64,000 bases of DNA from an uncultured delta proteobacterium (lineage in GTDB: Bacteria; Desulfobacterota; Binatia; UBA9968): assembly GCA_963737905.1 (NCBI GenBank), contig CAVTUQ010000004.1, positions 64,001 through 128,000 on the forward strand, written 5' to 3'. The translations under genes were made by a program, and so were the position numbers. The notes under the pieces are model-generated. The model was not told the DNA's origin. It made no database searches and was given only the letters and a program-made list of their open reading frames with translations. Of this stretch, positions 311 to 20,400 are shown one piece after another. The number at the start of each line of letters is the position of its first letter. The first letter of the stretch is position 1.

Positions 311-385
311 ATCGCTAGACCAATCAATAATGCTTCCTGTCGAAAATTTTACTGTGCCAAGACGAGTAGCTGCCAGTGCGGCTTC

Positions 386-2614: not shown

Positions 2615-2758
2615 CTATCCCGCACCCGCGTCACCTTACTAGTCTCGCATCTTCGTTCAGCACCATTCCACAAGCGCTTCGCCCCTCTTAGTTTCAACGC
2701 AAATACCCCCGGATTCACGTCCGGACATGTGTAAGAGTTTTCTCGTTCAATCTAATCG

Positions 2759-3208
2759 TCACTCGAAAAACGCGCCTTCGATCAGAACCGGTTTCGCGGC
2801 TCCTTGCTCGTGAGCTCTCCCGGGGACCGGCGTGCCATCGGGGTTGAGTCGCATGTCCGACTTGTCCAGCCCAGCGCCTATGCGAGCCATGACGAGGGGA
2901 GTATCGCCCGAGTTGCAGAATTGATAGTAGCAACCTGCCGGTAGTACAACGGCTTGGTGCTTGCTCGCTTTCAAGATCGTCTTACCGTCTCTGCTGGTGT
3001 TAAATTGTGCGGTTCCCTCTAAAACCAGGAAGATGTGATCCTCTTTGGTGTGAGAGTGCAGCGCGTTTTCCCCAATACCCGGAGAATAACAATGGATCCG
3101 CAAAGTCATCAGATCGGTTTCCGCCAGCAGGTGTCGGGTGTGTCCCTCTTTCACGAGTTGCGTTCTTAACTGGACTACCTTAGCTTCAACATTCTTGTTA
3201 TCCATCAA
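2759..3208 (-). CDS. Cupin domain protein
   Basis: ENALHSHTKEDHIFLVLEG and VVLPAGCYY cupin motifs. Confidence 0.85.
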   Translation of the reverse strand: MMDNKNVEAKVVQLRTQLVKEGHTRHLLAETDLMTLRIHCYSPGIGENALHSHTKEDHIFLVLEGTAQFNTSRDGKTILKASKHQAVVLPAGCYYQFCNSGDTPLVMARIGAGLDKSDMRLNPDGTPVPGRAHEQGAAKPVLIEGAFFE

Positions 3209-3411
3209 TGACCCTCCTTTTTTTTCGTTTCCCGAGCGCCGATTCTAGGATAATCGGCTCCCGATTAGCAAGACAGAGACTGACCTAGTGAAAGGATCCT
3301 TAACCAGATGACCTAACACCTGACTTTCAGGCGTTTGCGTTCAAGGTACTTGCAAACACGAAGCCTGTGAGTTTATTTGGTGGCTCCCACTCCTAATGAT
3401 CCGAGCCATGC

Positions 3412-4272
3412 ATGCGGCCTGAAATCGTCGCGATCTTTTCCGCTATGGGTTGGGCGGGAGATTCCGTCCTGGTTCGCCTGGGCTTGCGACAGTCGAATAT
3501 CTTCGCGGCTATGCTGGTAAGTTACGCCGTCTCCGTCACTTGCATCTGGACTTATCTTCTTGCTACGACCCCGCTCGATTTCCTCCAGTCCCCGGCGATG
3601 GTGTATTTTTTGGTCAGCGGCTGCCTTCAACCACTCTTCGCGCGCGCTCTCTACTACGAAGCCTTGATTCGGATGGGGGTTTCACGCGCCGGCCCCCTGC
3701 GCGGCGCCGAGCCTCTGTTTGCCGTGGCCATCGCTGTCACTGTTCTGCATGAGCAACCGACCCCTCCTGTGTATGTCGGCACCCTTCTGATTGTGGGAAG
3801 CATTTGGGCCATCTCTTCCGGCCATAGGGGAACCATCAACTGGCGGTTGCTTGATATTTTTCTTCCTTTGGGTGCGGGGCTTGTTTCCGCCATTTCCCAG
3901 AGCCTGCGCAAACAAGGGCTCAATATCCTCCCCGACCCGTTCGTGGCCGCAGCCACGGTGACATCCGTGACCTTGACACTTCTTGTCATTTTCCTCTACG
4001 CCACAAAACGGACCCGACAGCTGCGCATGAAACGCGAAAATTTTCTGTTTTTTTTCAGCGCGGCGCTGGTCGCGCTATCGGCTCAAATTGCAAACTTCAT
4101 CGCCCTCAGCCGAGCCGACGTTTCAGTTATCATCCCACTTCTCAACACCACCCCGCTCTTCGCCGTGCTTTTTAGCTCTCTATTTCTTAGAAGTCTGGAA
4201 ACCATCAGCCCGCGGACTCTCTTAGGAGCCATCCTCATGGTCGCCGGAGTCATGATAATTACGAGTCGATAA
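3412..4272 (+). CDS. DMT/EamA family transporter
   Basis: About 10 hydrophobic segments in two repeats; PLFAV..VLHE and PLFAVLFS..FLR motifs. Confidence 0.9.
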   Translation: MRPEIVAIFSAMGWAGDSVLVRLGLRQSNIFAAMLVSYAVSVTCIWTYLLATTPLDFLQSPAMVYFLVSGCLQPLFARALYYEALIRMGVSRAGPLRGAEPLFAVAIAVTVLHEQPTPPVYVGTLLIVGSIWAISSGHRGTINWRLLDIFLPLGAGLVSAISQSLRKQGLNILPDPFVAAATVTSVTLTLLVIFLYATKRTRQLRMKRENFLFFFSAALVALSAQIANFIALSRADVSVIIPLLNTTPLFAVLFSSLFLRSLETISPRTLLGAILMVAGVMIITSR

Positions 4273-4491
4273 GTTAAATGCGCGCTCCACAACTTCGTTC
4301 CGGTGCTTCAATGAAGGAAATTTGATAAGACATAGCAGTCTATAGCGGTTATGCGTCGAGGTGTTTGTCCTATTTCTCAAAAACTTTTTGCGCTTGACAT
4401 AGGCATGCCGGTCTCGGATATTTATTACGACTACCCTGTGGAATAGCCGCTCTCTTTCGCTTCTTCTCAGCAGCGGCGGATAGTTATTTTC

Positions 4492-6444
4492 ATGGCCGAT
4501 AATCACGACATAGCGCGTCCCCTAGGCGGACTCGACGAAGGGGCTGCGCTCCGGAGTATCCTCGAGGGAACGGCGAACGAGACGGGCGAGCGCTTCTTTG
4601 CAGCCCTAGTTGAAAACCTTGCACGGGCGCTGAAAACCCATGGAGCGTGGGTCACTGAATATATCCAAGAATGTCGCCGGCTGCGGGCCCTAGCCTTCTG
4701 GATGGACGGGCAGTGGATTCAAAATTATGAGATCGACATCGCCGGAACACCCTGCGAGCAAGTCATCGACACCGGCACCTTTGTCCATTTTCCTGATAAT
4801 CTCTTGGAATTGTACCCGGACGATCAGGACGCAAAAGACATCGGTGCTGTCAGTTACATGGGAATGCCGTTGAAGGATACCGACGGCAGAATTCTTGGGC
4901 ACCTGGCGGTAATCGATCGCCGTCCACTTCCAGAAGAGCCGCGAGTCCTGGCGCTTTTCAACATTTTCGCGGCTCGAGCGACTGCGGAAATGCGCAGACT
5001 GCGCGCCGAGAAACAAGTTCGCGAGCGCGAAGAAAAACTACGCGGGCTGTTCGACAGTGCTATGGACGCCGTCATCGAATTCGATCAGAACTTGAAGGTG
5101 ACCCGGATGAATCCCGCCGCAGAGCAAGCCTTCCATTGCGCCGCCCAACAGGTGATCGGTGAAGATTTCACCAGTCTCGTCTCGAAACAGGGCCAAAAAA
5201 AGCTCAGGAGCCTAATTCAGGAACTTGGCGCCGGCACTCCGGGACGCCGGTCCTTATGGATTCCGGGGGGGCTTCAAGCCTTGCCGGTCGGCGGAGAGGA
5301 ATTTCCAGCCGAAGCGACTTTGTCGCGCTTTGAGATTGAGCGGCAGAGCTTCTACTCCGTTATCCTGAGGAACATCAATGACAAACTCGAAGCCGACCGC
5401 AAAATTCATTCGCTCACGGCAGAAGCGGCGTATCTGCGAGAAGAGATTAAGAGCATCTACCGGTTCGACCAGACCCTAGGCCAGAGCCAAGCCTTGAAGC
5501 GTGTTTTGGAAGACGTCGAGCAGGTGGCGGTCACGGACACGACGGTTCTGATTCTTGGCGAGACCGGCACGGGCAAAGAACTGATTGCCCGAGGGATTCA
5601 TGGGGCGAGTCGACGGTCCGACAAGCCGCTCATCACGATCAACTGTGCCGCCATCCCAGCGGCGCTTATGGAGAGCGAATTTTTTGGACATGAAAAGGGC
5701 GCCTTTACCGGGGCGACTCAAAAACGGGAGGGACGTTTTGAGCTAGCGGATCGTGGAACGATTTTTCTCGACGAGATCGGCGAACTGTCCCTCGACTTGC
5801 AGGCTAAAATCCTGCGCGTATTGCAGGAGGGAGAGTTTGCGCCCGTCGGCAGTTCCCAAACGAAAAAAGTTGACGTTCGGGTGATCGCCGCGACGAACCG
5901 CGATCTCAACCAAGCCGTGAGAGACGGGGGCTTCAGAGAAGACCTCTACTATCGATTGAACGTTTTTCCCATCGAAGTACCGCCTTTGAGAGACCGCGAT
6001 GATGATATTATCCTGCTCGCGTCCGCCTTTGCAGCCAAATTCGCCCAACGCATGGGGCGCAGGATTGAACCGTTGTCTGCGGAGTCTGAGTCACGGCTCA
6101 GGGCCTACGCGTGGCCGGGAAACGTGCGCGAGTTGCAGAACGTCATTGAGCGCGCGGTCATTACCTCTCGGGATGGCCATCTCAATCTCGACCGTGCTCT
6201 GCCGGATGCCGGCGGTCAGACAATTCCTGGAAGGCGGCCGGCAGAAGAGACAACACCGGTAGCTTCAAACCGCATTCTTCGAATTCGCGACCTGCAACAA
6301 CTCGAGCGCGAGAATATCCTGCGTGCTCTGGAATCCACAGCGTGGCGCGTCGCCGGAAAGGACGGCGCCGCCGATCTGCTCGGCATGAATCCTTCGACGC
6401 TCAACTCCCGCATCAGGGCGCTAGGCATCCGGCGACCACAGTAA
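4492..6444 (+). CDS. Sigma54-dependent enhancer-binding activator (GAF-PAS-AAA+-HTH, FhlA-like)
   Basis: GETGTGKE Walker A, ESEFFGHEKGAFTGA, FLDEIGEL, FREDLYYRLNV, WPGNVRELQN, C-terminal HTH. Confidence 0.97.
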   Translation: MADNHDIARPLGGLDEGAALRSILEGTANETGERFFAALVENLARALKTHGAWVTEYIQECRRLRALAFWMDGQWIQNYEIDIAGTPCEQVIDTGTFVHFPDNLLELYPDDQDAKDIGAVSYMGMPLKDTDGRILGHLAVIDRRPLPEEPRVLALFNIFAARATAEMRRLRAEKQVREREEKLRGLFDSAMDAVIEFDQNLKVTRMNPAAEQAFHCAAQQVIGEDFTSLVSKQGQKKLRSLIQELGAGTPGRRSLWIPGGLQALPVGGEEFPAEATLSRFEIERQSFYSVILRNINDKLEADRKIHSLTAEAAYLREEIKSIYRFDQTLGQSQALKRVLEDVEQVAVTDTTVLILGETGTGKELIARGIHGASRRSDKPLITINCAAIPAALMESEFFGHEKGAFTGATQKREGRFELADRGTIFLDEIGELSLDLQAKILRVLQEGEFAPVGSSQTKKVDVRVIAATNRDLNQAVRDGGFREDLYYRLNVFPIEVPPLRDRDDDIILLASAFAAKFAQRMGRRIEPLSAESESRLRAYAWPGNVRELQNVIERAVITSRDGHLNLDRALPDAGGQTIPGRRPAEETTPVASNRILRIRDLQQLERENILRALESTAWRVAGKDGAADLLGMNPSTLNSRIRALGIRRPQ

Positions 6445-6459
6445 ATCTAACTATCGGAT

Positions 6460-6510
6460 GTGAGATCTCACGACCCATCGTGACGAGATCTCGTCACTAG
6501 CGAGATTTCA
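6460..6510. promoter_or_regulatory. Putative upstream activator sequences for the sigma54 activator
   Basis: Three copies of (C/T)GAGAT(C/T)TC(A/G), including the perfect palindromes GTGAGATCTCAC (6460-6471) and GTGACGAGATCTCGTCAC (6480-6497), 70-120 bp upstream of a -24/-12 site. Confidence 0.7.
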
Positions 6511-6581
6511 TAATTGCTTTAACAACGCTCTCACCTCCCTAACTCATTGGTTTTCTGAAAGAAACCCGGCTTTCGATGACC

Positions 6582-6596
6582 TGGCATGCTAGCTGC
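6582..6596 (+). promoter_or_regulatory. Sigma54 -24/-12 promoter
   Basis: TGGCATGCTAGCTGC matches TGGCAC-N5-TTGC with correct GG-N10-GC spacing; lies between the activator gene and the gene at 6644. Confidence 0.8.
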
Positions 6597-6643
6597 TCTA
6601 TTGTGTTTCCATCAACTTCACTCAACCAAGGGAGGAAAGGAAA

Positions 6644-7555
6644 ATGCAACACAATTATTCATACCAATCGGCGCTCGAAGTCTCGGACCGAATCGGCTGG
6701 AAAGTGGACGATATCATCGGCGGCGACAAGCGGCTCGACTTCACCAAACCGTTCATGCCGGAATCGCTGGCTCAGGTGCAGCGGCTTTCCTTTCTCACCC
6801 CTGACGAACAGCTGACTCTAAACCAGATTCGCGGGCATGAGTATCTTGCCATGTTCGGTCTCGTCGAGGAGTTCATACTCCCCTACGTGGTGGACCATGC
6901 GCGGTCGCAACTCTCCGGAGACGACTACCGGGTGCGGGCCTTGCTCCAGTTCGCCGGTGAAGAGGCAAAGCATATCCATCTTTTCAAGCGCTTCCGGCAG
7001 GAGTTCGAGAACGGGTTCGGCAGCAAATGCGACTTCATCGGTCCCGCCGAGGACGTGAGCCGGTTTGTCCTTTCCCATAGTCCTTTGGGAGTCGGAATTG
7101 CGATTCTACACATCGAGTGGATGACTCTCAGGCACTACATCGAGGGCGTCAGGGATAATCAGGATCTCGACCCCCAGTTCAAGAGCCTGCTCAAGAACCA
7201 CTGGCTGGAGGAATCCCAACACACGAAGCTCGACACATTGATCCTGGAATCGGTGGTAAAGGAATCGACCCCCCAAGAGATCGACCAGGCTTTCAAGGAA
7301 TACGGCGAGATTGGTGCCTTTCTCGACCAGGGGATCCAGCAGCAAGCGGAGTTAAATGTGGAAAGTTTCGTTCAAGCGAGCGGAAGAAACCTCTCCAAGA
7401 GCGAGCGCGAAGAGATGAACAACGCCGTTATCAAGGGCATGCGCTGGACCTATCTTGGAACCGGCATGACGCATCCAAACTTTCTCGCCACCGTCGAGGA
7501 GATTAAGCCTGAAGCGAGAAAACAGATAGAGGAAATGGCGCCAGTGTTTTGTTGA
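6644..7555 (+). CDS. Ferritin-like diiron protein (AurF-like oxygenase fold)
   Basis: Carboxylate/His ligand pattern LVEE, EEAKH, HIE, EESQH. Confidence 0.75.
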   Translation: MQHNYSYQSALEVSDRIGWKVDDIIGGDKRLDFTKPFMPESLAQVQRLSFLTPDEQLTLNQIRGHEYLAMFGLVEEFILPYVVDHARSQLSGDDYRVRALLQFAGEEAKHIHLFKRFRQEFENGFGSKCDFIGPAEDVSRFVLSHSPLGVGIAILHIEWMTLRHYIEGVRDNQDLDPQFKSLLKNHWLEESQHTKLDTLILESVVKESTPQEIDQAFKEYGEIGAFLDQGIQQQAELNVESFVQASGRNLSKSEREEMNNAVIKGMRWTYLGTGMTHPNFLATVEEIKPEARKQIEEMAPVFC

Positions 7556-7590
7556 GCAAGAATGCAAAATGAAAAATGTAGGAGGAAGCT

Positions 7591-7968
7591 ATGTCAGTCG
7601 CAGAAACAACAAAAGAAATGCCTTTGACGAAAGACATTCTAGACCACCACTTAAAGTGTTTTGGCGAGGGCGACCTCAAGGGTATTCTATCTGACTATGC
7701 CCCGGGTGCCGTCCTGTTCACGTCGGACGGACCCCTCAGGGGAGTCGACGCAATTAGGCCGTTGTTCCAGGCGATGATTGCGGAGTTTGGAAAGCCTGGC
7801 GCAGCGTTCAGCATGAAGCAGCAGTTTGTCGAGGGCGACTATGCCTATATTCTATGGGGCGCGGAGACTGCAGAAAACTTGTACGAGATAGGCACGGACA
7901 CGTTCGTCGTGCGCGACGGCAAGATTGTGGCCCAGTCATTTACCGGCAGGATTACGCCCAAAGGCTGA
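7591..7968 (+). CDS. SnoaL/NTF2-like protein
   Basis: HHLKCFGEGDLKGILSDYAPGAV...GTDTFVVRDGKIVAQS. Confidence 0.85.
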   Translation: MSVAETTKEMPLTKDILDHHLKCFGEGDLKGILSDYAPGAVLFTSDGPLRGVDAIRPLFQAMIAEFGKPGAAFSMKQQFVEGDYAYILWGAETAENLYEIGTDTFVVRDGKIVAQSFTGRITPKG

Positions 7969-8016
7969 AAACAAGTCTTTATTCCGGTGACAAAATTTAA
8001 CGAGGAGGCGAGTATC

Positions 8017-9400
8017 ATGACAACGCAAACGTCGAAGGTGAAAGAAGAGCTCAAAGACAAGATCAAGGGGAACGTCCTGGTTCCCGAGGACAGCGGTTAC
8101 AAGGAAGCTCGGCAGATATGGAACGCCATGATCGATCGGCGGCCTGCGGTTATCGTGCAGTGCGTACAGGCTGACGATGTTCCACCAGCAATCCAGTTTG
8201 CGCGAAAAAGCGGGCTTGAACTTTCAATTCGCGGTGCCGGACACAACATCGCAGGCAATGCCCTCTGCGACAACGGCGTTATGATCGATTTTTCAAGAAT
8301 GAAAAGCGTTCGCGTAGATGCCGGGAAACGGCGCGCCTATGTCGAGCCTGGGGCGACCCTCGCGAATTTCGACGAAGCGGTACAGGCGCACGGCTTGGCG
8401 ACGCCGGTGGGGATCAATTCCACGACAGGCATCGCCGGTTTAACGTTGGGCGGCGGCTTCGGGTGGCTGACTCGCAAATACGGCATGACGATCGACAATC
8501 TCGTCTCCGTCGACATGATCACGGCCGATGGCAAGAAATTGCGGGCAAGCCAAAGCGAAAATGCGGACCTTTTCTGGGCTATTCGCGGCGGCGGGGGAAA
8601 TTTTGGCGTCGTCACCCAATTTGAATTCCAACTTTTCCCCGTGGGACCCGAAATCGTCGCCGGCTTGATCGTTTTTCCGTTCAACCAGGCAAAGCAGATA
8701 CTGACCAAGTATCGTCAATTTGTAAATTCAGCACCCGAGGAGCTCAACGTCTGGGTGGTGCTCCGCAAGGCGCCTCCGTTGCCTTTTCTTCCGGAAAACG
8801 TGCACGGCAAGGAGGTCGTTGTGTTGCCGGTCTTTTACTGCGGGGCCGCAGCGGAAGCAGAGAAACTGATCGCTCCTCTGCGCGCTTTCGGTAATGCCCA
8901 CGGCGAGCATATCGGCGCACAGCCCTATGTTGCGGTGGCAAAAGGCCTTTGACCCTTTGCTGACGCCGGGCGCGAGAAATTATTGGAAGTCGCATAACTT
9001 CACGGAGCTTGCTGACGGAGCGCTGAATTCCATTATCGAGTTCGCCGGGAAGCTGCCCTCCCCGCAGTGTGAGATTTTCATAGGGCTGATTGCCGGTGCG
9101 CCCAACCGCGTCGCCCCTAACGCGATGGCCTATGGTCATAGGGACGCGAAATTCGTGTTGAACGTGCACGGACGATGGGACGAAGCGAAGGATGACCAGA
9201 AGTGCATTGGGTGGTCACGCGAGTTTTTTAAAGCCAGCAAGCCCTACGCGTCAGCCGGCGCTTACGTAAATTTTATGACCGACGAGGAGGGCGACCGCGT
9301 CGCCGCGGCTTACGGATCCAACTATGATCGCCTGGTGGAAACCAAGAAACGCTACGATCCGGAAAATATTTTTCACTTGAATCAGAACATCAAACCTTGA
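8017..9400 (+). CDS. FAD-linked oxidase (BBE/6-HDNO family), frameshift near 8935
   Basis: RGAGHN flavinylation motif, GIAGLTLGGG, RGGGGNFGVVT; C-terminal YVNF...KKRYDPENIF in the second frame (8894-9400); GAGGAGG RBS before 8017. Confidence 0.9.
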
Positions 9401-9616
9401 AGCGGATGTCGTTATGGAAGGTTTCTTACTCTTCGCCCTCATACTGTTCTATGTGGCTATTTCCTTTGGTCACTCATAGAGCGAACATTACAACGACCAA
9501 AGTCGTTTTGCTGGGCTATAAAGAAAGAAGACCATGACCAGACCAGTAATCAAAACCGTGACGCCATCAGCGGAAAAATTTAGGGGGATCCACATCCCTC
9601 ATTCTTAAATGATGCC

Positions 9617-10453
9617 ATGGCAACAACGTGCCCGGTCGACTTCGATGTAGATAGATTGCGCCGGCTCGTGCGTGTGGAGTACGATCGGCTGGCGCGGGAA
9701 CCCAGGGGAAACTTTCATTTTCATCGAGGACTGGAGTATGCTTGCCGCATACTCCGCTATGACCCTGAGGAGTTGGCAACAATCCCATCCGAATGCACCG
9801 CGTCCTTTGCCGGTGTCGGCAATCCGCACCGCATCGGTCCCATCGAACCGGGTGAAACAGTCCTTGATATCGGGTGCGGCGCCGGCATGGATCTTTTGCT
9901 GGTCGCGCGCCGCGCCGGCCCTTCGGGAAAAGCGATTGGAGTGGATATGACCCCCTCCATGCTCGAGCTGGCCAAGCGCGGCGCACTAAAGGCCGGCTTA
10001 TGGGAGAACACTGAGGTTCGCCGCGGCACGGCCGAAGAGCTGCCGGTGGCGAGCGAGAGTGTCGATGTTGTTATCTCTAACGGCGTCCTCAATCTCTCAC
10101 CGGACAAAGATCGCGCCTTTCGCGAGATATACAGAGTGCTGCGTCCGGGAGGACGCTTGTATCTCGCCGATGTAGTGATTCAAAGAGAGCTTTCACTCGC
10201 AACGCGAAGCGATGTCGATCTTTGGGCAGCGTGAATTGGCGGCGCTCTGCCGGAGGTGGAGCTTTATGAAATCACCGCTGGCGTTGGTTTGACGGATGGG
10301 AAGATCGTCGAGCGCTTCGATTGTTATGAAGGTACCTCTGCTAAAGCAAAGTTATCCAAAGACCTTCTCATTCACGGCGTGAATTTTCTCGCCCGCAAAC
10401 CGTCGCGCTCAAGAGGGGCCAACGATCAGCAAACGTCGGACAGGCTAGGATAG
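9617..10453 (+). CDS. ArsM-like SAM-dependent methyltransferase, predicted selenoprotein (Sec at TGA 10232-10234)
   Basis: VLDIGCGAG motif I and SNGVLNLSPDK. LWAA-TGA-IGGALP aligns with the ArsM W-x-x-C-I-x-G-A-L Cys. ORF 10256-10453 is in the same frame. Hairpin at 10244-10262. Confidence 0.85.
10244..10262 (+). promoter_or_regulatory. Putative bacterial SECIS element
   Basis: GCTCTGCC-GGA-GGTGGAGC: 8-bp stem with two G-U pairs; loop starts 17 nt after UGA. Confidence 0.7.
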
Positions 10454-10458
10454 TCGGG

Positions 10459-11373
10459 ATGGAAAAATCATCCGAGAAAGAAATCACCACGGCGACTCTT
10501 ACAGTTTTCGCCCTTATCGCCTTTGCCGCCAACTCGGTCTTATGCCGATTGGCGCTCGGCCAGTCGGCCATCGATCCTGCAAGTTACACGGCGGTCAGGC
10601 TGATCACAGGAGCGGTCACTTTGTGGATCATCACTCGCTTCCTCCGGGCCGGATCCTTCGGGAAGTCCGGCGGCAGCTGGATTTCTGCAGCAATGCTTTT
10701 TCTATATGCGGTAACCTTTTCTTTCGCCTACCTAAGCTTGAGCGCGGGAACTGGCGCGTTGATTCTATTCGCAGCGGTGCAAATTACGATGATCGCGGTT
10801 GGCCTCTATGCGGGCGAAAGACCGGAGCTATTGGAGTGGCTGGGATTATTCATCGCCATTGCTGGCCTGATTTATTTAGTGTTTCCCGGGATCACCGCCC
10901 CGTCCATCCTCGGATCGCTACTCATGGCCACCGCCGGCATCGCCTGGGGTGTTTACTCTCTCAGAGGCCGAGGAGCCAGTGATCCTGTCAGTGTCACCAC
11001 GGACAATTTTCTACGCACAGTGCCCTTGGCCCTCGGTCTCATCTTGTTATGGCTATCGACGCTGACTATAACCCCGATGGGTTTTCTCTGGGCAGCCCTA
11101 TCCGGATCCATCACGTCGGGAGTCGGCTATGTCCTATGGTATGCGGCGCTGCCTCGCCTGACAGCGACACGGGCGGCCACGGTCCAGCTAGCACCGGCAC
11201 CGCTAGCAGCACTTGGCGGAGTTGTCGTTTTATCTGAAGCGATTAGTCTGCGTCTGGTGATATCGTCTGTGGTGATTCTGGGTGGGGTCGGCCTGGCGGC
11301 TTCCCGCCGCACGTCCGTTTCCAAGCGGCCAGAGTCTTTAACCGCTGTCGTACAGACTTCCATCAGAGACTAA
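10459..11373 (+). CDS. DMT/EamA family transporter
   Basis: ALIAFAANSVLCRLAL and SGVGYVLWYAALP motifs; multiple TM segments; starts 5 nt after the read-through methyltransferase stop. Confidence 0.9.
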   Translation: MEKSSEKEITTATLTVFALIAFAANSVLCRLALGQSAIDPASYTAVRLITGAVTLWIITRFLRAGSFGKSGGSWISAAMLFLYAVTFSFAYLSLSAGTGALILFAAVQITMIAVGLYAGERPELLEWLGLFIAIAGLIYLVFPGITAPSILGSLLMATAGIAWGVYSLRGRGASDPVSVTTDNFLRTVPLALGLILLWLSTLTITPMGFLWAALSGSITSGVGYVLWYAALPRLTATRAATVQLAPAPLAALGGVVVLSEAISLRLVISSVVILGGVGLAASRRTSVSKRPESLTAVVQTSIRD

Positions 11374-11533
11374 AAGCGACTTAAGATCTCACAGCAAACA
11401 GAATTTTTCGTTGCCGAAGTTCTTTAATCGACACGCGGCACATTCTGTATGTTTCACATGTTTCTCGGCGTCCACGTCCGACCGTGGATGCTCAACTCAT
11501 TTTTGAACTGGGAGTGAGATCTCAGATGATGAC

Positions 11534-11983
11534 TCATGCGAGGCGGACAACGATCACCCCCATCACTACCATGCAAACCAGTTGTGTAAAAAAGAAAATA
11601 AACCTCAGGGTTACTGCGAAGTTGGTAGGCGTGAGGGCGATATGGACGATGGTCTGGCAAACGCGGGCCGCCAGCAATAGGATCGCCAACCGATCCAGCG
11701 TAACGCTCCGGATGCCGGTCGCGACAATGGCCACCACCACCGCCGTGTAGAGTGGCAGGTTCTCCAGACAGTTGGCATGAGCGCGCATGGCCCGCTGGTA
11801 CCAATCGCTTCCATGTGGCTCGTCGGCCGGAAATTCCTTAATCGCTGCTCGTCCCGTCAAAATCCGACTCCATCGATACCAGCCGATGGTGCTCAGAAGC
11901 GTGATTGCAGTCCACGTCGCAAAACCCAACAAGACCCAGATCGGGATTGACACGAATCCAACCCTCTGCTTGAACTGGGCCAA
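11534..11983 (-). CDS. MAPEG family membrane protein
   Basis: RAMRAHANCLENLP motif, about 4 TM segments; true start may be GTG near 11953. Confidence 0.85.
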   Translation of the reverse strand: MAQFKQRVGFVSIPIWVLLGFATWTAITLLSTIGWYRWSRILTGRAAIKEFPADEPHGSDWYQRAMRAHANCLENLPLYTAVVVAIVATGIRSVTLDRLAILLLAARVCQTIVHIALTPTNFAVTLRFIFFFTQLVCMVVMGVIVVRLA

Positions 11984-12160
11984 AATTCTTTCGCCGCACG
12001 TGCGGTGGCCATGAGACCTGGCGCTCAGGAGTCAATGCTTCGACAATCTGGACCGGTGGGTCTATGCAGACAAAATCTACTAGGAGTTCACACCTCCGGC
12101 CAATTAGACGGCTTGAACGACTGCAACGTTTGGAACGGCTGGAACTGTCCCGAGTCGGCC

Positions 12161-13909
12161 TCACACCATCTGCATGTACACATCGACCAGGGCCGGTCGT
12201 TTTTCTTCTTTGATGACCTTGATCGCCCGTTCCACCGCCGGGCGAATCTTCTCCGGTTCGGTGATCGGCCCCTCGCCGTGAACGCTAAAGGTGCGGGCCA
12301 AGTTGGCAAAGTCCACCGGGGGCTTGGCCATTTCCATACCCACGAGTTTGTTCTCCACCGGCCGGCCGCGGTGGATCGCGACCTTTTCCTGATGCTCCAC
12401 GTCGTTGTAATAAACCCGATTGTTGGTCATTACCGTCAACAAAGGCACTCCGGTGTTGGCCGCAGTCCACAGGGCGCTCGGTGTGTACAGCATCTCGCCG
12501 TCGCGCTGCAAATTGACGCAGATCTTGCCCGTGCCCCGATAGGGTAGCGACGCGCCGACGGACGCGGCGGGACCGTAGCCTAATCCGCCACCGCCATAGC
12601 CGCCGAGAAAAAGGCCGGGTTTATCCCAAGTCCAGAGACGGCTCGGCCAGCCGCGAAAAGCCCCGGCGACCAGCAGCCAGTCTTCCTTCTTGAGCGCTTC
12701 CCAAATTTCGTAGGCCAAGCGCGGCGGCGCGATGGGCCGCTCGTCCCAACGCTTTTTGAGATCCGCTTGCCAGCGCGCGTGAACTTCCTCGTGCTGCCCC
12801 GTCATCGCCTTGCGCCGGTCATCGACGACGCTGTTGGAAAATTTGCCCTGCTTTTTGATTTCTTCAGCCAAAGCCGGGAGAAAAACTCTCGTGTTCGCGA
12901 CGATGGGCAGATCCACCGGCGCCAGTTGTTGAAAATCGCTGGTCCAACTCCGCACCGAGAGATCGTTGAGCGTCACGTTGATCACCTTGCAGCCGGGCTT
13001 GGTCGCAGGGGCGGTCGCGTGGGTCGCGGGGTCCTGCTTGACCAGAGCGCCGAATAGATCGGTCATGTCTAGCCCCATGATGACGTCGGCGTTGGCGATC
13101 AGCTCGCGGTTCTTGCCGGTAAGATTCAACGAATGCGTGTTGGGAAAATTCATGCGCGCGCCGAAATCGATGACCGGGATCGACAACAGATCGGCGAGCG
13201 CCACCAGGCTCATCACCGCGTCGTTATTCCGGCCCACGTAATCAGCGAGGATCACCGGATTCTGCGCCGTCGACAATAGTCGCGCTGCTTCTTTGATCGC
13301 ATCGTAGTCCGCTTGCAGCGGCGCCGGGGGACGGAAGCGGCTCGGATCGGGCAGCGGGATCTCTTTTTCGATCGCGGCCTCCTGATCGGTGACATCGAAG
13401 CAGAGATAGACCGGCCCGCCCGGGTCGCTCATGGCGATGCGATAGCCTCGCATGATCGAGGACGGAAACGCTTCGACGCCCACGGGTTGGTCGTCCCACT
13501 TGACGAAGTCGCGCACCAGATTACCCTGCACCTGCGCCGTATGGATCCAGTCGATCCACGGGCGGCGTTTACTCGAATTCATCGGCCCTGTGCCGCCCAT
13601 GACCATCACCGGCGTGTGGTCGCACCAGGCGTTGTAGATCGCCATGGAAGCGTGCTGCAGGCCGACCACGTTGTGGACGATGGCGGGCATGATCTTACCC
13701 GTCGCTTTGGCGTAACCATGCGCCACCGCGACGGCGATCTCTTCGTGACAGCAGAGAATCATCTCCGGATTGGGTTGTCGGCCGCTCTCATAATTCACTA
13801 GAGAATCGTGAATTCCGCGAAAGCTCGACCCCGGGTTGAGTGCGACGTATTCAATGCCAAGGATTTTCAACAGATCAACGACGAGATCCGATCCATAACG
13901 CGCTGCCAT
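12161..13909 (-). CDS. Thiamine pyrophosphate-binding enzyme (acetolactate synthase/benzoylformate decarboxylase-like)
   Basis: NPGSSFRGIHDS, HEEIAVAVAHGYAK, RDGEMLY...NN ThDP motif. Confidence 0.92.
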   Translation of the reverse strand: MAARYGSDLVVDLLKILGIEYVALNPGSSFRGIHDSLVNYESGRQPNPEMILCCHEEIAVAVAHGYAKATGKIMPAIVHNVVGLQHASMAIYNAWCDHTPVMVMGGTGPMNSSKRRPWIDWIHTAQVQGNLVRDFVKWDDQPVGVEAFPSSIMRGYRIAMSDPGGPVYLCFDVTDQEAAIEKEIPLPDPSRFRPPAPLQADYDAIKEAARLLSTAQNPVILADYVGRNNDAVMSLVALADLLSIPVIDFGARMNFPNTHSLNLTGKNRELIANADVIMGLDMTDLFGALVKQDPATHATAPATKPGCKVINVTLNDLSVRSWTSDFQQLAPVDLPIVANTRVFLPALAEEIKKQGKFSNSVVDDRRKAMTGQHEEVHARWQADLKKRWDERPIAPPRLAYEIWEALKKEDWLLVAGAFRGWPSRLWTWDKPGLFLGGYGGGGLGYGPAASVGASLPYRGTGKICVNLQRDGEMLYTPSALWTAANTGVPLLTVMTNNRVYYNDVEHQEKVAIHRGRPVENKLVGMEMAKPPVDFANLARTFSVHGEGPITEPEKIRPAVERAIKVIKEEKRPALVDVYMQMV

Positions 13910-13989
13910 AAATACCTCCTCGACGATTATTGACTTGAACAGCGACCGAGGACCGAGTCCCCTTCGCTAATGGGCAATGCGCCTCTACA

Positions 13990-14059
13990 GTTCAAAGTTC
14001 AAGGTTCAAAGGGGGAGGGGGGATAAATACCTTGAACCTGGAACGTTGAACTTTTGAAC
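13990..14059. repeat. Heptamer tandem repeats arranged as an inverted repeat
   Basis: (GTTCAAR)x3 at 13990-14010 opposite TTGAAC-type units at 14032-14059. Confidence 0.75.
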
Positions 14060-14072
14060 GGCCCTTTGGGCC

Positions 14073-15161
14073 CTAGTGAACGGTGGCCGACTGAGACGCC
14101 GCCTGTAACGGCTGTGGAATTTCCATGTCGTAGAGCTTTGCCACGTTGGTGCAAACAAGTTTCCTGCGCACGTCTGCCGGCAAGTGCCCCAGGTCGCGAT
14201 CGATATATTTTTTCGACTCCGGCCATGTGGAATTCCCGTGGGGATAATCGTTGGACCACATACAGTTGTCCTGACCCCACCATTCGAAACTATGGCCCGC
14301 CGCGGTGTCGCGGAAGAACGTCCCATAGACCTGTCGGTTGAAATATTCGCTGGGGTTTTTCGTGATCGGCGGAGGATTCACGCCTTTGAACCTGTTGTAA
14401 TAATAATCCCACTGCTGGAGCATGAACGGCATCCATCCGATCTCATTCTCGACGCTGACGAACCTGAGCTTGGGATATCGATCCAAGACTCCGTAGAAAA
14501 TCAGTTCAAAAAACGCATCGATGATTTCCTTGAGCTTCAGATTCACGCTGCCCCGATAGGCCTCGACGCCTGTTCGCTTGTTACCGAACACGGTTTCCTT
14601 GTGGTAGCCATGCCCGGTGAGGATATGCAGATTCACCGGCATGTTGAGATCCTGGGAAGCCGCCCAGAACTTATTGTAATGCTCCGAATGAAACGGTAGG
14701 TCCGGATGTGGCGCCTGCCAGATGATCGATCCCTTGAGACCGGCCTTCGCGCAACGCTCCAGCTCCTTTACCGCCGCGTCGATGTCATAAACCGAGATCG
14801 CGCCGATACCAATCAAACGATTGGGAGCAACCTTACAATACTCAAACAACCAATCGTTGTACGCTCGGAAACAGGCCTCTTGAAGCTTCGCGTCGTCCAT
14901 GGCGAAGTGCGGCAGCAGGTTGGTCGGGTAAAGCACCTCGGCGCTGAGCCCGTCGGTTTCCATCTCCTTGATTCGGCAATTTGGATCCGACCCACCTGGA
15001 TGCGTCTGAAAGCTTTCTCCCACTTTGAGCTGGGGAAAAACCGGAGCTTGTTCTCGGAACGACGGCGCAACTCGCTCCTTCACGGTGTTGGGTGGTTCCA
15101 TCACGTGGGAGTCCGAAGAAATCAGCACCTCACAACCTGCATTATTTCCATTGCCAGCCAT
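14073..15161 (-). CDS. Amidohydrolase_2 family protein
   Basis: ISSDSHVMEP, PVNLHI, ENEIGWMP, MWSNDYPH. Confidence 0.92.
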   Translation of the reverse strand: MAGNGNNAGCEVLISSDSHVMEPPNTVKERVAPSFREQAPVFPQLKVGESFQTHPGGSDPNCRIKEMETDGLSAEVLYPTNLLPHFAMDDAKLQEACFRAYNDWLFEYCKVAPNRLIGIGAISVYDIDAAVKELERCAKAGLKGSIIWQAPHPDLPFHSEHYNKFWAASQDLNMPVNLHILTGHGYHKETVFGNKRTGVEAYRGSVNLKLKEIIDAFFELIFYGVLDRYPKLRFVSVENEIGWMPFMLQQWDYYYNRFKGVNPPPITKNPSEYFNRQVYGTFFRDTAAGHSFEWWGQDNCMWSNDYPHGNSTWPESKKYIDRDLGHLPADVRRKLVCTNVAKLYDMEIPQPLQAASQSATVH

Positions 15162-15361
15162 AAAATCTTCCTCCTTTAGCCATATGTATATGGTTACCTA
15201 TTCATTAACCGCAAAAAACTCAAAGTTCGCAAAGTTTTCGAAAAAACTTCTCTTTGTGTTTTATGCGTTCTTTGCGGTCAAGTTTCTCCTCAATCCTAGC
15301 GACTATTGCAGGTCTACCACCACAGACCTCAACGGGTCAACCGGGCGCGAGCACGCTCACA

Positions 15362-15428
15362 GTTTCGAGTCTCGCGTTTCGAGTTTCGTGTTTTAAACCC
15401 GAGACTAGAAACCCGAAACACGGAACTG
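15362..15428. repeat. Heptamer tandem repeats arranged as an inverted repeat
   Basis: GTTTCGA GTCTCGC GTTTCGA GTTTCGT opposite AAACCCG AGACTAG AAACCCG AAACACG. Confidence 0.7.
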
Positions 15429-15450
15429 AAAAGGCCGAGCCAGGCCTTTT
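15429..15450 (-). terminator. Possible intrinsic terminator
   Basis: AAAAGGCC-N6-GGCCTTTT immediately after the stop of the substrate-binding protein gene. Confidence 0.4.
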
Positions 15451-16427
15451 CAGAAGAGCCCTTCTTTTTCCAACTTCCGCGCGATGCGCTCGTCGATGAC
15501 ATCTTCGGCTTTGAGCTTGCGAATCTGCTCGTTGCTTCTGCCGAGAATACGGATCACGTTGCGCAGGCCATCGACGTTGGCATAAATCCGCCGGTCGTAA
15601 AGGACCTTCATCATGTCATAGCCCGCCTCCGCGTCTTCTACCTTTGACAAGCGCAAGGTGCGCATCAAGCTCCGGATAACCGTAGGTTTGTTTTCAGGAG
15701 TATTGATGAATTTAATGGTCTCGATCATCGCTCTAAGGTAGCGCTCTACGGTGTCGGGCGAGCGGTCGACAAAGCTCCGCCGCGCCATGATGCCCAGACC
15801 CTGAAACGGGATGCCGAGCGTGAGAAGATCGGCCAGAACGCGGAAACCCTGCCGCTCTAGTTGAGCCCCAAACGCATAACCGAGATACGCCCCATCGATA
15901 ATGCCGCCGGTTGCAAGCGCTTGAGCCATAACCCCCTGATCGCCGATGATCCGAAACTGAATGTTGTCACGCTCCGGATTGATCCCCCAGTGATCAAAAG
16001 CCAGCATGCTGAACATCCACACGCCCCCGCCGATACTTTGGACGCCGATCCTTTTGCCCTTGAGATCCGCCGGCGTCTTGATATTGGGAGCGACCACGAA
16101 CGTGCCATCGAGCTTGTTAATCAAACCTGCGACGAAGACCAAGTCGAGTCCGCCGGCCATCGCGCCGATGGATGCACCCGTAGCCGAACCGCCGTGAAAT
16201 TGCGTCTCTCCGGCAGCGAGCGCCGACAAGCCGACCGCGCCGCTCCGCACGTTGACGACTTGAGCATCCAGACCATACTTTTGAAAAATCCCCGCATCTT
16301 TAGCCACAAAAAGCACGCCACTGCGCTCGTTCAACCCGCCATAAGTGACGACGATCTTTGTCGGCGCCGAAGCGGCAAAACGGCAGGAGAAAAGCCCAGT
16401 GTCAAAACTAGAACGATCAAACAACAT
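15450..16427 (-). CDS. ABC substrate-binding protein (NMT1/SsuA-like)
   Basis: LFVAKDAGIFQKYGLD and DLKGKRIGV motifs; the N-terminus or signal may be frameshifted. Confidence 0.9.
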   Translation of the reverse strand: MLFDRSSFDTGLFSCRFAASAPTKIVVTYGGLNERSGVLFVAKDAGIFQKYGLDAQVVNVRSGAVGLSALAAGETQFHGGSATGASIGAMAGGLDLVFVAGLINKLDGTFVVAPNIKTPADLKGKRIGVQSIGGGVWMFSMLAFDHWGINPERDNIQFRIIGDQGVMAQALATGGIIDGAYLGYAFGAQLERQGFRVLADLLTLGIPFQGLGIMARRSFVDRSPDTVERYLRAMIETIKFINTPENKPTVIRSLMRTLRLSKVEDAEAGYDMMKVLYDRRIYANVDGLRNVIRILGRSNEQIRKLKAEDVIDERIARKLEKEGLF

Positions 16428-16662
16428 CGCATCCGATACTCCATCACTTTATTATCTCCTCTTTCCCATCGACGACTTCTTGTACTCCGTGCACATCTCG
16501 GATTGCAAGCGCATCGGTTTATGACTTCTGTTCGCTTCAGGTCGCCGGAGCCCTCTATGAAATCCGGTCGAGCCGGGGTAAACCCGGCACCCGGAGCAAG
16601 TCTTGACGCGCGCTTTCAATTGACCATAATGGTCAAGTAGGACAAACCAGAAAGGAATATCT

Positions 16663-16953
16663 ATGAAGACTACAACCGTCTCAAAACTCAAGGCTTCTCT
16701 CAGTGAGTATCTACGATCGGTCAAGGCAGGCGAAGAAGTCCTAGTCACTGAACGCGGGCGCCCTATTGCCAAGCTCACTCCGGTCGCAAGTTCCGACATT
16801 CTGCCTGATCACTTGGTCGAAATGGAAAAACAGGGTTTCATCAAAATCGGCTCAGGAAAGTTGCCGAAGGGTTTTTGGGATCTTCCGCGGCCCAAAGATC
16901 CTAAGGGGTTGGTTCTCAAGACTGCTTTACGGGAACGGGAGGAGGGCTGGTGA
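16663..16953 (+). CDS. Phd/YefM family antitoxin
   Basis: VSKLKASLSEYLRSVKAGEEVLVTERGRPIAKL. Confidence 0.92.
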   Translation: MKTTTVSKLKASLSEYLRSVKAGEEVLVTERGRPIAKLTPVASSDILPDHLVEMEKQGFIKIGSGKLPKGFWDLPRPKDPKGLVLKTALREREEGW

Positions 16954-17382
16954 AATTCTGGGACACATCCGCGGTTGTCCCTCTGTGCGTAATCGAGCCC
17001 ATTACCGGAACCGTTAAATCAATTCTCACTGGAGACCCTTCGCTCGTCGTTTGGTGGGCAACGAGGACTGAATGTGTCTCAGCCCTCAACCGGCAAACCC
17101 GAGAAGGCAGCTTGCGTATCGAGGACGAACACCAGGCACATCACGTACTAAGGCAACTTGCGGACGCCTGGACCGAGGTTCAACCGAGCGAAATTAATCG
17201 TGGGACCGCAGAGCGGCTACTTGCGTGCATGCTCTCAGAGCTGCAGATGCTTTTCAGTTAGCGCCGCTTTGCATTGGTGTCAAAGACAGCCGGTGAACAG
17301 AGAGCTGGTCTCCTTCGACACCCGGTTGCGAAACGCGGCATACAAAGAAGGATTCACGCTCCGTCCCGCCCAGATTCACTGA
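16950..17382 (+). CDS. vapC: VapC (PIN) toxin, frameshifted near 17225-17265
   Basis: FWDTSAVVPL start; HALRAADAFQL and VSFDTRLRNAAYKEGF lie in shifted frames; GTGA overlap with the antitoxin. Confidence 0.85.
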
Positions 17383-17448
17383 GCAGTATACGTGAAGGCA
17401 CCGCGCGGAAAATCTTCGTCCGGGTTTCTGGATGCTCGATGTAACCGA

Positions 17449-20400
17449 TTATGTAAGTTCCTCCAGTAATGCTTTTGCCTCTTTCAAGTCGGCCGTGTCA
17501 AACCCTTCAGTAAACCAGCCGTAAATATCACCTAGCAATTTTCGCGCTTTTCCTGTCTTACCTTGCTTCTGCCACAGCCGACTCATGCTCATCGCTGCCC
17601 GTAACTCCAACGACTTCGCTTGCTGTCGGCGTGAAATCTCGATAGCCTCCGAAAAACTCTCCTCTGCAGAACGGTGAACGAACTCCGCTTTCTGCATTCC
17701 AGGCTCTGCATTCAAAAGAAGCTCGCCTTTCAGCCGATGTAGCTCTGCCTCGTAATACCACCCTCCGTTTTTGTGCGACCAAGCTACTTCGGACAGCACA
17801 GTCAATCCCTCCTCTGCCTTCTTCACTTTCCCATAAATCTTCGCTAGGAGAACCAGATAATGCGACCGGGCCACTTCTGCGCCTGTGGTCTTATAGGCGA
17901 GCAGACCCTGGCACATTTGTGCAACGCCTTTCTCTGCTGTTTGTCCTTCATCGGCCAGTGCCCAACCGCGTAGGATGGTTCCCTGCGTAAACCAGTAAGG
18001 GAACCCATACTTGCTTGCGAGCGCCAGGAGTGCCTCCGCTCGCTCTTGGACTGCTTCACGCTCTCGACGGAATTCATGGAGCCAGGCAGCATAGCCCAGG
18101 GCCTCAGCTAAGGTTAGGGGATGAGACAATTCCTCGGCGAGAGCTAGCGCGTCTTGACTTCTCTTCAGGGCCCGGTCCGGATAGCCAAGCAACCACAGCG
18201 CCAAGGCTCCAAAGTCCCTGCAGCACACCCCGGGGTCGTGCCCACCATAGAGAAAGGCCAGGACGCGGTGCTGTGGGGAATCATACAGATCAATCCCATG
18301 TTCCGAGTGTGCTCTGGCTAGAGTCAACTCTCCAATAAAGAACGAGTTGGCCCACATCGCGTGATGGGCTTCGAGGAGAAGACCGGCGTCACGCAGGTGC
18401 TGAGCCAGACTAAAGAGTTGCGTGGCTAGATCTCTCGCTGTTTGCAACTCTCCCCGCTGTAGATGAAGTAGCCATAGTCCCCACAATACGGGGAAAAGCT
18501 GCGAGGTCTCGCCTACCTGTTGGCACAATTCCCGTGCCCGCAGGTACACGGGTTCGATTTCTGGCGCGCCGAAACCTTTGGTTGACTGGAGCGCCGGGCC
18601 AAGGGCGAGCAGCAGAGCGAGCTCTTGCTTTTCGCGTTCGTCACTTAACGGCAACGTCTCGACGACTTCCAACGCTCTCGTGAAATAGGCCACCGCCTCT
18701 AAGTTCGCCGAACGCGATAACGCCTTGGTCCCGGCTTCGCGGAGATACATAACCGCTTTGTCCCACACCTCTCCCCTGACGGCATGGTCAGCCAAGCGCT
18801 CCACTTGTTCGCCGAGTCTGTCCCGGTAAAGCTGCTCCGTTATTTCGACGATTCGCGTATGAAGCGCGCGCCGGCGATCTTGCAACAGCGTTCCGTAAGC
18901 AACCTCGTGTGTAAGGGCGTGCTTAAAGGTGTATTCGATATCCGGAAAGAGACTCGTCTCGTAAAGAAACTCCGCGGCCTGAAGCCGAATCAGTCCACGT
19001 CTGACTTCTTCTTCGGACTGATCCGCGATGGCTTGAAGCAGCGCAAATGGAACGTCCTTGCCTATAACGGCCGCCGATTGAAGAAGACGTTTCTCATCTA
19101 GCGCAAGTCTATCAATCCGAGCGGCTAACACTGCCTGTACGGTTGCCGGTACCTGCGTGCTCTCAATCGGTCTGGCAAGACGATAATTTCCCCGCTCGCC
19201 CGCTAGCAGTTTGGTCTCCACTAATGTGCGAACGCTCTCCTCGATGAAAAAAGGGTTCCCTTCCGTTCGCTCGATCAATAGCTTTTTCAATGGCGCGAGG
19301 CTCGAATCACTTCCCAAAAGTGCCTGGAGCAGTTCCTCCGCGCTTTCAGGCGGCAGAGGATCAATCCGGAGTTGGCTGTAATAGGTCTTGCTCCCCCAGC
19401 CGTGCTGGTACTCCGGCCGATAGTTGACCAACAGCAGAAGTCGCGCAGTCGGAAGACTCTCAATCAAGCTATCCAGGAAAGACTGGGTCTCCGAATCGAT
19501 CCAGTGAAGATCTTCGATGACCAAGAGCAAAGGTTGGATTTGGCTCTCTCGTAGCAGCAAACGCTTGATTGCCTCTAGGGTGCGCTGGCGGCGCTGTGGA
19601 GGATCCGAGCTCTGCCACACTTGGTCCTCGAGCGTCAAGTCTAAGAGCGCCAGGAACGCAGGCAGTGTGGGCTCTAGAGACTTATCCAGTGTCAGGAGCT
19701 TCCCTGTAACTTTCTCGCGAATCTTCCGCACATCGTCTCGGTCTTCAATGGTGAAGTATGCCTTGAGCAGGTCGATCACTGGAAGATACGCAGTCGCTTT
19801 GCCGTAAGAGACCGAGCCGCTTTCAAGGATAAGCCAGTCCACGGTACGGCGAGAATGAGCGAACTCCCAGAACAGACGGGACTTGCCTACCCCCGGCTCA
19901 CCGACAAGGGCTACCACCTGGCCGTGGCCGCTGCCTGCCTTATCGAGAGCGCGGCGGAGAGTCTCAAGCTCAGTATCGCGTCCGACGAAGCGCGTGAAAC
20001 CGCGCGCGGCTGCTGCTTGCAGCCGAGAACGTGTGGCTCCAACTCCAGTAACCTCATAAACTTCCACCGGCTCAGTTAGTCCCTTGACGTTGACCGGGCC
20101 AAGCGACTTCACCTGCACATAGCCTTCGGCTAGTTGTAGTGTGTCCGCGGTCATCATGATCGACCCCGGCATCGCCATCTGTTCCATCCGTGCGGCCAAA
20201 TGGGTGGTCTGCCCAACGGCCGTGTAATCCATCTTCAGGTCGCTGCCGATCGATCTGACTACGACTTCTCCAGAATTCACGCCAACTCGAATCTGAATCG
20301 GAATGCCCTCAGTTCTCTGAATGCTCTCTGCATACTTCTTCACCGACTCCTGCATCCTGAGCGCGGAGTAACAGGCTCGCACTGCATGATCTTCATTCGC

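Follow-up and report, generated by a model that had tools for sequence, protein, structure and literature searches.

In the available text of PMC5552862, a protein is counted as an ArsM arsenite methyltransferase when it carries at least three of four cysteines (Cys44, Cys72, Cys174 and Cys224 of CmArsM, whose last three positions we number as given there). The same text states that Cys72, Cys174 and Cys224 are conserved in all ArsMs collected by a phylogenomic study. ArsM-type proteins that contain selenocysteine (Sec) are also on record. An "arsenite methyltransferase" with the motif UxxG is listed as a selenoprotein in the accessible part of PMC13188914, which cites Fomenko et al. 2007, and an "arsenite S-adenosylmethyltransferase" appears in the accessible part of the Global Ocean Sampling (GOS) selenoproteome paper, PMC2398784. 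Three ArsM-like selenoprotein families, NF047649 (methyltransferase/UXPK-star), NF041537 (ArsM/AhpD) and NF041536 (ArsM/DUF2284), are attributed in that part of PMC13188914 to Haft and Tolstoy 2025. Here we describe a related gene in a 64,000-nucleotide stretch of DNA (the window) from an uncultured delta proteobacterium (assembly GCA_963737905.1, contig CAVTUQ010000004.1). The gene (9617..10453, + strand) is predicted to encode a short ArsM-like S-adenosylmethionine (SAM) methyltransferase of 278 residues, with Sec at residue 206, when it is read through an in-frame TGA.

The TGA is very probably a selenocysteine codon. The frame opened by the ATG at 9617 meets this TGA at 10232..10234 (+ strand) and then runs on in-frame to a TAG at 10451-10453. 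A first-pass annotation of the window had taken the TGA for a Sec codon and the read-through product for the real protein. Comparison of the codon over related loci, a Sec-specific hairpin and constraint on the tail all bear this out, and from these sequence comparisons we consider it very likely that the UGA is decoded as Sec (U206) and that this is a genuine selenoprotein gene.

Codons at the Sec position divide the family in two. A one-genome-per-species scan confirmed 464 relatives, and comparisons were made on the best 80 loci, or on 81 sequences when the window gene is included. The codon at the U206 position is TGA in 23 of the 80 loci, TGC in 44 and TGT in 10, with one case each of TCA, TGG and CGC. 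We built a quick maximum-likelihood tree of the 81 sequences, in which the Sec position was entered as C in all Sec rows. It resolves two clades (SH-aLRT 99), for which one Sec/Cys change is enough: a Sec clade of the 24 Sec rows together with the TCA row and the TGG row, and a Cys clade of 54 Cys rows and the CGC row. Record titles place members of the Sec clade in Binatota, Thermodesulfobacteriota, Verrucomicrobiota, Myxococcota, Acidobacteriota and Armatimonadota. In the class to which the window belongs, the methyltransferase has a scattered distribution (6 of 151 genomes with a match of E 1e-60 or lower), and all matches carry TGA. The concern raised at first, that homologues might end at WAA just before the TGA, does not hold for the Cys-bearing homologues.

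More distant Sec-bearing relatives occur in the same class (L115 and L116, in G081 and G031, and others), at 51-56% identity. These have a second TGA soon past the conserved end of the protein, where translation probably ends. Another Sec form, 41% identical (L120, G137:C408), is extended at its N-terminus by about 230 residues of unknown family and is without Cys236.

It is highly improbable that the TGA is a real stop, ending a truncated or decaying gene whose 205-residue product is followed by leftover conservation. Gene callers and NCBI do annotate the 205-residue form, and in some close relatives the site is occupied by Ser, Trp, Gly, Arg or Leu. The adjacent oxidase gene is also frameshifted. 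Against this, TGA is found in 23 species-level loci from at least six phyla by record title. Among full-length database proteins of the Sec clade, the residue at the Sec site is C in 38, G in 7, S in 4, R in 3, L in 2 and W in 1; Gly, Ser, Arg, Leu and Trp codons are each one base change from TGA in the genetic code. Probably these five forms are rare mutants or sequencing errors, which surface since only such forms get called full length. Two loci in which the Sec codon has been replaced, L036:545 (TCA, Ser) and L037:1533 (TGG, Trp), still have 8 of 8 hairpin pairs, and because the full hairpin is retained they look like recent losses of Sec.

The hairpin behind the UGA is of the bacterial selenocysteine insertion sequence (bSECIS) type and is specific to the Sec loci. 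It occupies 10244..10262 (+ strand), with an 8-bp stem (two G-U pairs in the window copy) and a GGA loop. The stem starts 9 nucleotides (nt) past the UGA, and the spacing from UGA to loop is 17 nt. The bSECIS model in section 5 of PMC13188914 describes a loop of 3-9 nt with G in the first two loop positions, a stem of 4-16 bp, a distance of 16-37 nt from UGA to loop and a minimum free energy (MFE) of at most -7.5 kcal/mol. The window hairpin, at -11.5 kcal/mol, lies within all of these limits. The MFE is -14.8 kcal/mol in another Sec locus (L024), and in two Cys loci the corresponding stretch folds at -4 to -5. Across 24 Sec sequences, 96.7% of hairpin pair cells are standard pairs, and two pairs show compensatory changes from C-G to U-A. 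All 23 Sec loci form 7-8 of the 8 pairs; the Cys loci (n=54) form 4.5 on average, and none forms 8. The same IGGALPE peptide is encoded in Cys loci, but by other codons. SelB, bound to the window hairpin at 10244-10262, would have the UGA at 10232-10234 decoded as Sec.

Constraint on the read-through tail (10235..10450, + strand) provides the third line of evidence and is hard to reconcile with a real stop. We compared pairwise differences at codon positions 1, 2 and 3 among the 24 Sec rows. Before the UGA (codons 100-205) these are 0.26, 0.19 and 0.56, and in the conserved tail (codons 217-261) they are 0.30, 0.26 and 0.61. This third-position bias indicates that the tail is translated and constrained, under purifying selection, to about residue 261. 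Under the hairpin (codons 207-216) the values fall to 0.08, 0.08 and 0.25, and the suppressed third-position change points to an extra constraint on the RNA. The last codons (262-278) differ by 0.60, 0.61 and 0.67; thus residues 207-261 are conserved and residues 262-278 are unconstrained. Motifs of the tail are IGGAL, RFDC236 and NF.A.K, of which the latter two are common to Sec and Cys forms. In an AlphaFold model (predicted local distance difference test, pLDDT, 85.9), two strands of the fold, 226-234 and 253-260, lie after Sec, so the truncated product would be without them.

The genome encodes most of the expected decoding machinery. We find selA (606.9 bits), selB (409.8) and selD (381.4), all above their cut-offs and side by side on one contig (G000:C29:71024-75669). 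The selD gene itself has one in-frame TGA, a further point against reading the methyltransferase TGA as a stop.

Several observations weigh against selenocysteine. tRNA-Sec was not found in the assembly (87% complete), either by a whole-genome aragorn search or as an RF01852 match over cut-off, and an Rfam scan of 20 kb around selAB-selD gave no tRNA-Sec; this absence would also suit a real stop. Of 20 relatives, 15 have a tRNA-Sec, at 64-79 bits, and one of these is of the same genus (13 of 18 without the unpublished genomes G006 and G012). No Rfam family matches the hairpin in a scan of 9000-12000 at E up to 10, which returned only a chance CRISPR-DR60 match (E 0.84) and an RT-7 match. The 76-nt fold around the site is no more stable than shuffled sequences (z -0.56), and the 25-nt hairpin alone has z -1.8. 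The only metatranscriptome run with related sequence yielded two short contigs, one of 167 nt on 9888-10054 and one of 153 nt on 10685-10837; these fall short of proof of transcription, and the UGA lies outside both.

Independent copies of the locus support the reading of the site. A second copy lies on contig C24 of the assembly (G000; 23.3 kb) and is 98.2% identical over 13.5 kb to 6517..20000 of the window. Its methyltransferase has four residue differences and keeps both TGA and hairpin. Over its first ~1.1 kb, C24 is noisy (95% identity, 10 gaps), and the copy may be a duplication or a strain variant binned into the metagenome-assembled genome (MAG; contamination 6.7%). The site is also covered by DNA contigs from three other studies; among the differences listed for them, none falls between 10199 and 10326, and the same contigs differ at many flanking third positions.

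The protein has the fold of ArsM and is not, on its sequence, a canonical ArsM. It matches Pfam Methyltransf_31 (1.7e-31), as a class I SAM methyltransferase, and in a phmmer search its nearest solved relatives are CmArsM chains (5eg5 and 4kw7, E 1.8e-29). In the fold ranking (VIA-align) its model superposes best on ArsM structures: 6cx6_B at Z 26.3, with a root-mean-square deviation of 4.1 over 231 aligned residues and 34% identity, and 4fr0 at Z 26.0. The best non-ArsM chain has Z 21.6. Shared with ArsM/AS3MT (CmArsM, PDB 4FR0 and 6CX6; NF008823) are the class I fold, including part of the N-terminal region, and the SAM motifs. Unlike ArsM, the protein is without the C-terminal domain and has no ars gene context, and it has no conserved Cys in the Cys44 region. 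It scores 215.9 bits with NF008823, below the curated cut-off of 263. A whole-genome search with this model gave no match over cut-off, and the best scores, 209.8 and 208.6 bits, are the two copies of this gene.

Only one of the four ArsM cysteine positions is kept, and it is kept as Sec. Residues 64-70 read FAGVGNP, 154-157 SNGV and 203-206 WAAU, followed by I-G-G. Aligned to CmArsM, V67 falls under the Cys of "GcG" in 4kw7 (Cys72), G156 under the first Cys of "SNCVCNL" (Cys174) and U206 under the Cys of "GECLGGAL" (Cys224). This pattern extends across the family. Residue 67 is V, I or L and never Cys in all 81 sequences, residue 156 is Gly in all 81, and U/C206 is retained in 78. The HFHRG motif (residues 34-38) is nearly invariant across the 81. 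The protein had initially been placed outside canonical ArsM, a placement that its cysteine count and its NF008823 score confirm. The description of its motifs needs one correction: GVGNP, SNGV and Sec at the last site are as first read, but WxxC is the family's own motif rather than that of canonical ArsM, in which CmArsM has GEC.

The sequences thus strongly support a large family of short ArsM-like enzymes in which the Cys224 equivalent alone is retained, as Sec in one clade and as Cys in its sister clade. The "single selenol" ascribed to the window protein is a fair description of this whole family and not of this gene alone. It is accurate in that U/C206 is the only near-invariant Cys outside the SAM motif; it is too strict in that two other cysteines are largely retained, Cys5 in 62 of the 71 rows with a residue there and Cys236, in the tail, in 72 of 81. 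Cys43, close to the ArsM Cys44 region, is retained in 13 of 81. A selenenyl-sulfide pair between U206 and Cys236 was considered as a general feature and dropped, since Cys236 is absent in 9 of 81 sequences and is Tyr in a group of DsbA-fused relatives.

Described families reduce the novelty of these observations. Like the arsenite methyltransferase selenoproteins listed in the accessible part of PMC13188914, the protein is ArsM-type with Sec at a UxxG site (here U-I-G-G); unlike them, it scores under the cut-off of NF008823, the model given there for that family. It also falls below NF047649 (192.3 bits, cut-off 460), NF041537 (218.5, cut-off 510) and NF041536 (203.1, cut-off 575), with matches that run from the N-terminus on. 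The second Sec, UXPK tail, AhpD domain and DUF2284 domain of those families are absent from the window protein. In a phylum-wide search, 3 of 301 genomes passed the NF047649 cut-off. True members of that family (L122 and L123) read FCGVGNP, ISNGV and U-IGGA. Their Val at the Cys72 position and their SNG show that the pattern of missing ArsM cysteines is already present in a described family, although they have a Cys two residues before the Val that the window protein does not.

ArsM-type UxxG selenoproteins have been listed since 2007-2008, in so far as the available parts of these sources show, and the gene is a newly recognised, mis-annotated selenoprotein of an already known sort. Our literature search found nothing on ArsM homologues that are without the cysteines and have a selenocysteine, and the bioRxiv version of Haft and Gwadz mentions no methyltransferase; Haft and Tolstoy 2025 may well describe the family or the pattern.

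The downstream transporter is a local partner of the methyltransferase. An EamA/DMT-family transporter gene (10459..11373, + strand) matches Pfam PF00892 (EamA) in two stretches (2.3e-17), with both repeats and 64 bits against a cut-off of 28.2. Its TIGR00950 score is low (38.4, cut-off 230.2), so no specific EamA subfamily can be named. The gene starts at ATG 10459, 5 nt past the TAG; counted from the TGA, the gap is 224 nt. That only the read-through product ends 5 nt before this gene is correct by coordinates. The first-pass annotation had taken it as support for read-through, which it is not: the last 17 codons show no coding constraint, so the spacing is no evidence either way. The two genes are bridged by one DNA contig of run X1, and they are probably co-transcribed. 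Scans of 6300-12100 for sigma-70 promoters and terminators were at chance level, and gave no terminator between them.

We assessed neighbour linkage by tblastn of the neighbour proteins of the window and of its relatives against the 4-kb flanks of the 80 loci, many of which are cut by contig ends. EamA is found at 7 of the 80 loci. It is directly downstream in 6, at distances of 2-237 nt; these 6 belong to the closest Sec subclade, and none of the 55 Cys-clade loci has it. The pairing is local to this lineage and is not a property of the family, and the methylate-and-export pair proposed at the outset fails as a general feature. Two further membrane-protein observations belong here. A second EamA-family transporter gene lies at 3412..4272 of the window, just upstream of a sigma-54 activator gene, and one locus (L034) carries, upstream of the methyltransferase, relatives of both window EamA genes. 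A gene for a MAPEG-family membrane protein (11534..11983, - strand) converges on the EamA gene, and MAPEG relatives occur near the methyltransferase in 3 of 55 Cys-clade loci.

The transporter also bears on whether the enzyme could be a working arsenite methyltransferase, binding As(III) perhaps with glutathione or with Cys236 and Cys5, with EamA exporting methylated arsenic. ArsM is the best structural and sequence match, and relatives are named "arsenite methyltransferase" by their sources. Cys236 and Cys5 are fairly well conserved, and the transporter gene is only 5 nt away. We nevertheless regard this as very unlikely. One of four cysteines is present where at least three are required (available text of PMC5552862), neither this protein nor any other in the genome passes NF008823, and no ars genes were recognised in the neighbourhood. 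The protein is without the ArsM C-terminal domain, and the EamA link is confined to 6 of 80 loci.

The most widely retained neighbour of the methyltransferase family is an AurF-like protein. In the window it is encoded at 6644..7555 (+ strand), and is identified by fold and ligand residues. It occurs at 38 of 80 loci (11 of 25 in the Sec clade, 27 of 55 in the Cys clade), and in every case the two genes share a strand; in the Cys clade the gene is usually 30-60 nt upstream of the methyltransferase. Its model is helical (pLDDT 91.8), and Foldseek matches R2lox 4xb9 (E 1.1e-4) and AurF (2jcd_A, TM 0.60), at 11-18% sequence identity. Residues E75, E107xxH110, E158 and H186xxxE190xxH193 are invariant in 25 sequences, as carboxylate and histidine metal ligands in a ferritin-like fold. 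The ligand set and its spacing we take to be those of AurF.

This protein shares with the AurF/CmlI arylamine N-oxygenases and the R2-like ligand-binding oxidases a common ferritin-like bundle and the ligands E, ExxH, E and HxxxExxH. Unlike AurF itself, it is under the Pfam AurF cut-off (PF11583, 19.9 bits against 29.6; two relatives reach 25.9 and 27.9), at the low identity given above. NCBIfam and PDB sequence searches with it were empty, and the literature search found no paper that pairs AurF-like and ArsM-like genes.

Other neighbours are less widely shared. OsmC occurs at 15 of the 80 loci, a sigma-54 activator at 13, GNAT at 11, an unnamed 215-residue protein at 9, a flavin adenine dinucleotide (FAD)/BBE oxidase at 6, an Rv2258c-like methyltransferase at 5, a catalase at 3 and a SnoaL-like protein at 1. 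In the window, the SnoaL-like small protein gene (7591..7968, + strand; Pfam SnoaL_2, 3.8e-12) lies between the AurF-like and methyltransferase genes. The FAD/BBE-type oxidase gene (7987..9400, + strand; Pfam FAD_binding_4 and BBE), which also lies between these two genes, consists of two overlapping open reading frames (ORFs), split by one extra G near 8934. It is intact (470 residues) in the C24 copy, and the split is either an assembly error or a real frameshift.

Upstream of the cluster is a sigma-54-dependent activator gene (4492..6444, + strand) with GAF, PAS, AAA and helix-turn-helix (HTH) domains (Pfam Sigma54_activat, 1.5e-73). A sigma-54-promoter-like site (GG..N10..GC; 6582..6597, + strand) lies 47 nt before the AurF-like gene and carries two mismatches to what we take to be the consensus. 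It is a weak lead: the pattern has 23 matches in the window against 27.8 expected, which is at chance, so the site is supported by its position alone.

Domain fusions in relatives are a pointer to thiol redox chemistry. Of the 120 listed relatives with more than 487 residues, 83 have a DsbA-like thioredoxin domain before the methyltransferase (Pfam column count), often with a MarR-type HTH between. SNGV is found in 92 of these 120, and 26 are canonical, with SNCV and Cys at residue 67. Position 206 is Cys in 119; the exception, P0138, consists of an MFS transporter fused to a methyltransferase that breaks off just ahead of the Sec position. A further protein, P0123, joins the methyltransferase to an AurF-like domain that is 30% identical to the window's AurF-like protein (E 3e-39). 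The DsbA-like fusions (among P0147-P0241) are about 550 residues long, with a single-Cys methyltransferase that reads FAGVGYP, SNGV and WADCIGG; where sources are named, they are archaeal MAGs (Thaumarchaeota, Thermoplasmata and Methanobacteriota).

We propose, with a probability of about 0.4, that the enzyme methylates a thiophilic substrate held by a single bond and depends on an external thiol reductase. With one selenol, the enzyme would be unable to chelate As(III) in the manner of ArsM; its single selenol or thiol may hold the substrate through one covalent (Se-X) bond, and SAM would then methylate the bound atom. As candidate substrates we favour chalcogen species, such as a selenide or persulfide adduct, or a metalloid that already carries methyl groups, over inorganic arsenite. 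Once oxidised, the Sec (possibly together with Cys236) might be reset by a separate thiol oxidoreductase.

In canonical ArsM, the reducing step is the task of the Cys44-Cys72 pair. That DsbA-like, AhpD (NF041537) and OsmC proteins recur as fusions or neighbours suggests that here this step is supplied externally. The AurF-like di-iron protein probably acts on the same compound, before or after methylation, and may oxidise substrate or product. EamA, added downstream in this lineage, probably moves substrate or product.

Some of the same evidence fits a different pathway, which is the main alternative. The enzyme could be an ordinary small-molecule methyltransferase, acting on O, N, S or C of an organic compound in oxidative tailoring or catabolism. 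The AurF-like, FAD/BBE and SnoaL-like proteins would make or modify the compound and EamA would export it, with Sec/Cys206 being catalytic or redox-sensing. The AurF-like partner is common and in P0123 is fused to the methyltransferase. The FAD/BBE oxidase resembles BagK/FevA1 oxygenases, although at 214 bits it is far under their cut-off of 800. SnoaL-like proteins, GNAT and second methyltransferases are among the neighbours of relatives, natural-product methyltransferases come close behind ArsM in the fold ranking (Z 21), and no ars genes were seen nearby.

We consider this pathway somewhat unlikely. The retained site is exactly the As-binding Cys224 position, the DsbA-like and AhpD fusions point to thiol redox chemistry, and the FAD/BBE and SnoaL-like genes are rare across the family. 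Furthermore, Sec/Cys pairs mark redox-active or soft-ligand-binding cysteines and not general acid-base residues. The same view of such pairs is credited to Fomenko 2007 in the accessible part of PMC13188914.

Methylation of a thiophilic substrate through a single bond is itself challenged by several points. No ars, selenium or tellurium genes were recognised among the annotated ORFs of 1..20844. The AurF-like, SnoaL-like and FAD/BBE neighbours fit an organic-compound pathway equally well. P0123 and P0138 are single records that could be gene-calling or sequencing artefacts. Finally, the variable presence of Cys236 described above limits what this residue can contribute across the family.

A broader view would place all single-Cys/Sec short ArsM-like proteins (the Sec clade, its Cys sister clade and the DsbA-fused forms) in an enzyme class of their own, distinct from arsenite methyltransferases. 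Such enzymes would act on single-bond substrates, for example selenide, persulfide, tellurium species or dimethylarsenite, with a separate thiol oxidoreductase and with an AurF-like unit in about half of bacterial loci. This extension is unlikely at the present stage, and we put it forward tentatively.

The locus has consequences for annotation and for environmental surveys. This gene and dozens of its relatives are mis-annotated as 205-residue "methyltransferase domain-containing proteins" and ought to be annotated as full-length selenoproteins; 61 of 120 database matches listed end right at the UGA, and none of the curated NCBIfam selenoprotein models scores this protein above its cut-off. 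In environmental surveys, "arsM-like" genes are taken as a measure of the potential for arsenic methylation. The family, confirmed in 464 places in a one-genome-per-species collection, keeps too few of the ArsM cysteines to count as ArsM and probably has a different role, so these surveys may overestimate that potential.

As a clean natural pair, the two sister clades, Sec and Cys, are well suited to asking what a methyltransferase gains from selenium in its active site, and the AurF-like pairing and the DsbA-like fusions provide concrete hypotheses on function. If these proteins do form a class of their own, they would represent an undescribed way in which soil bacteria methylate and oxidise chalcogens or metalloids.

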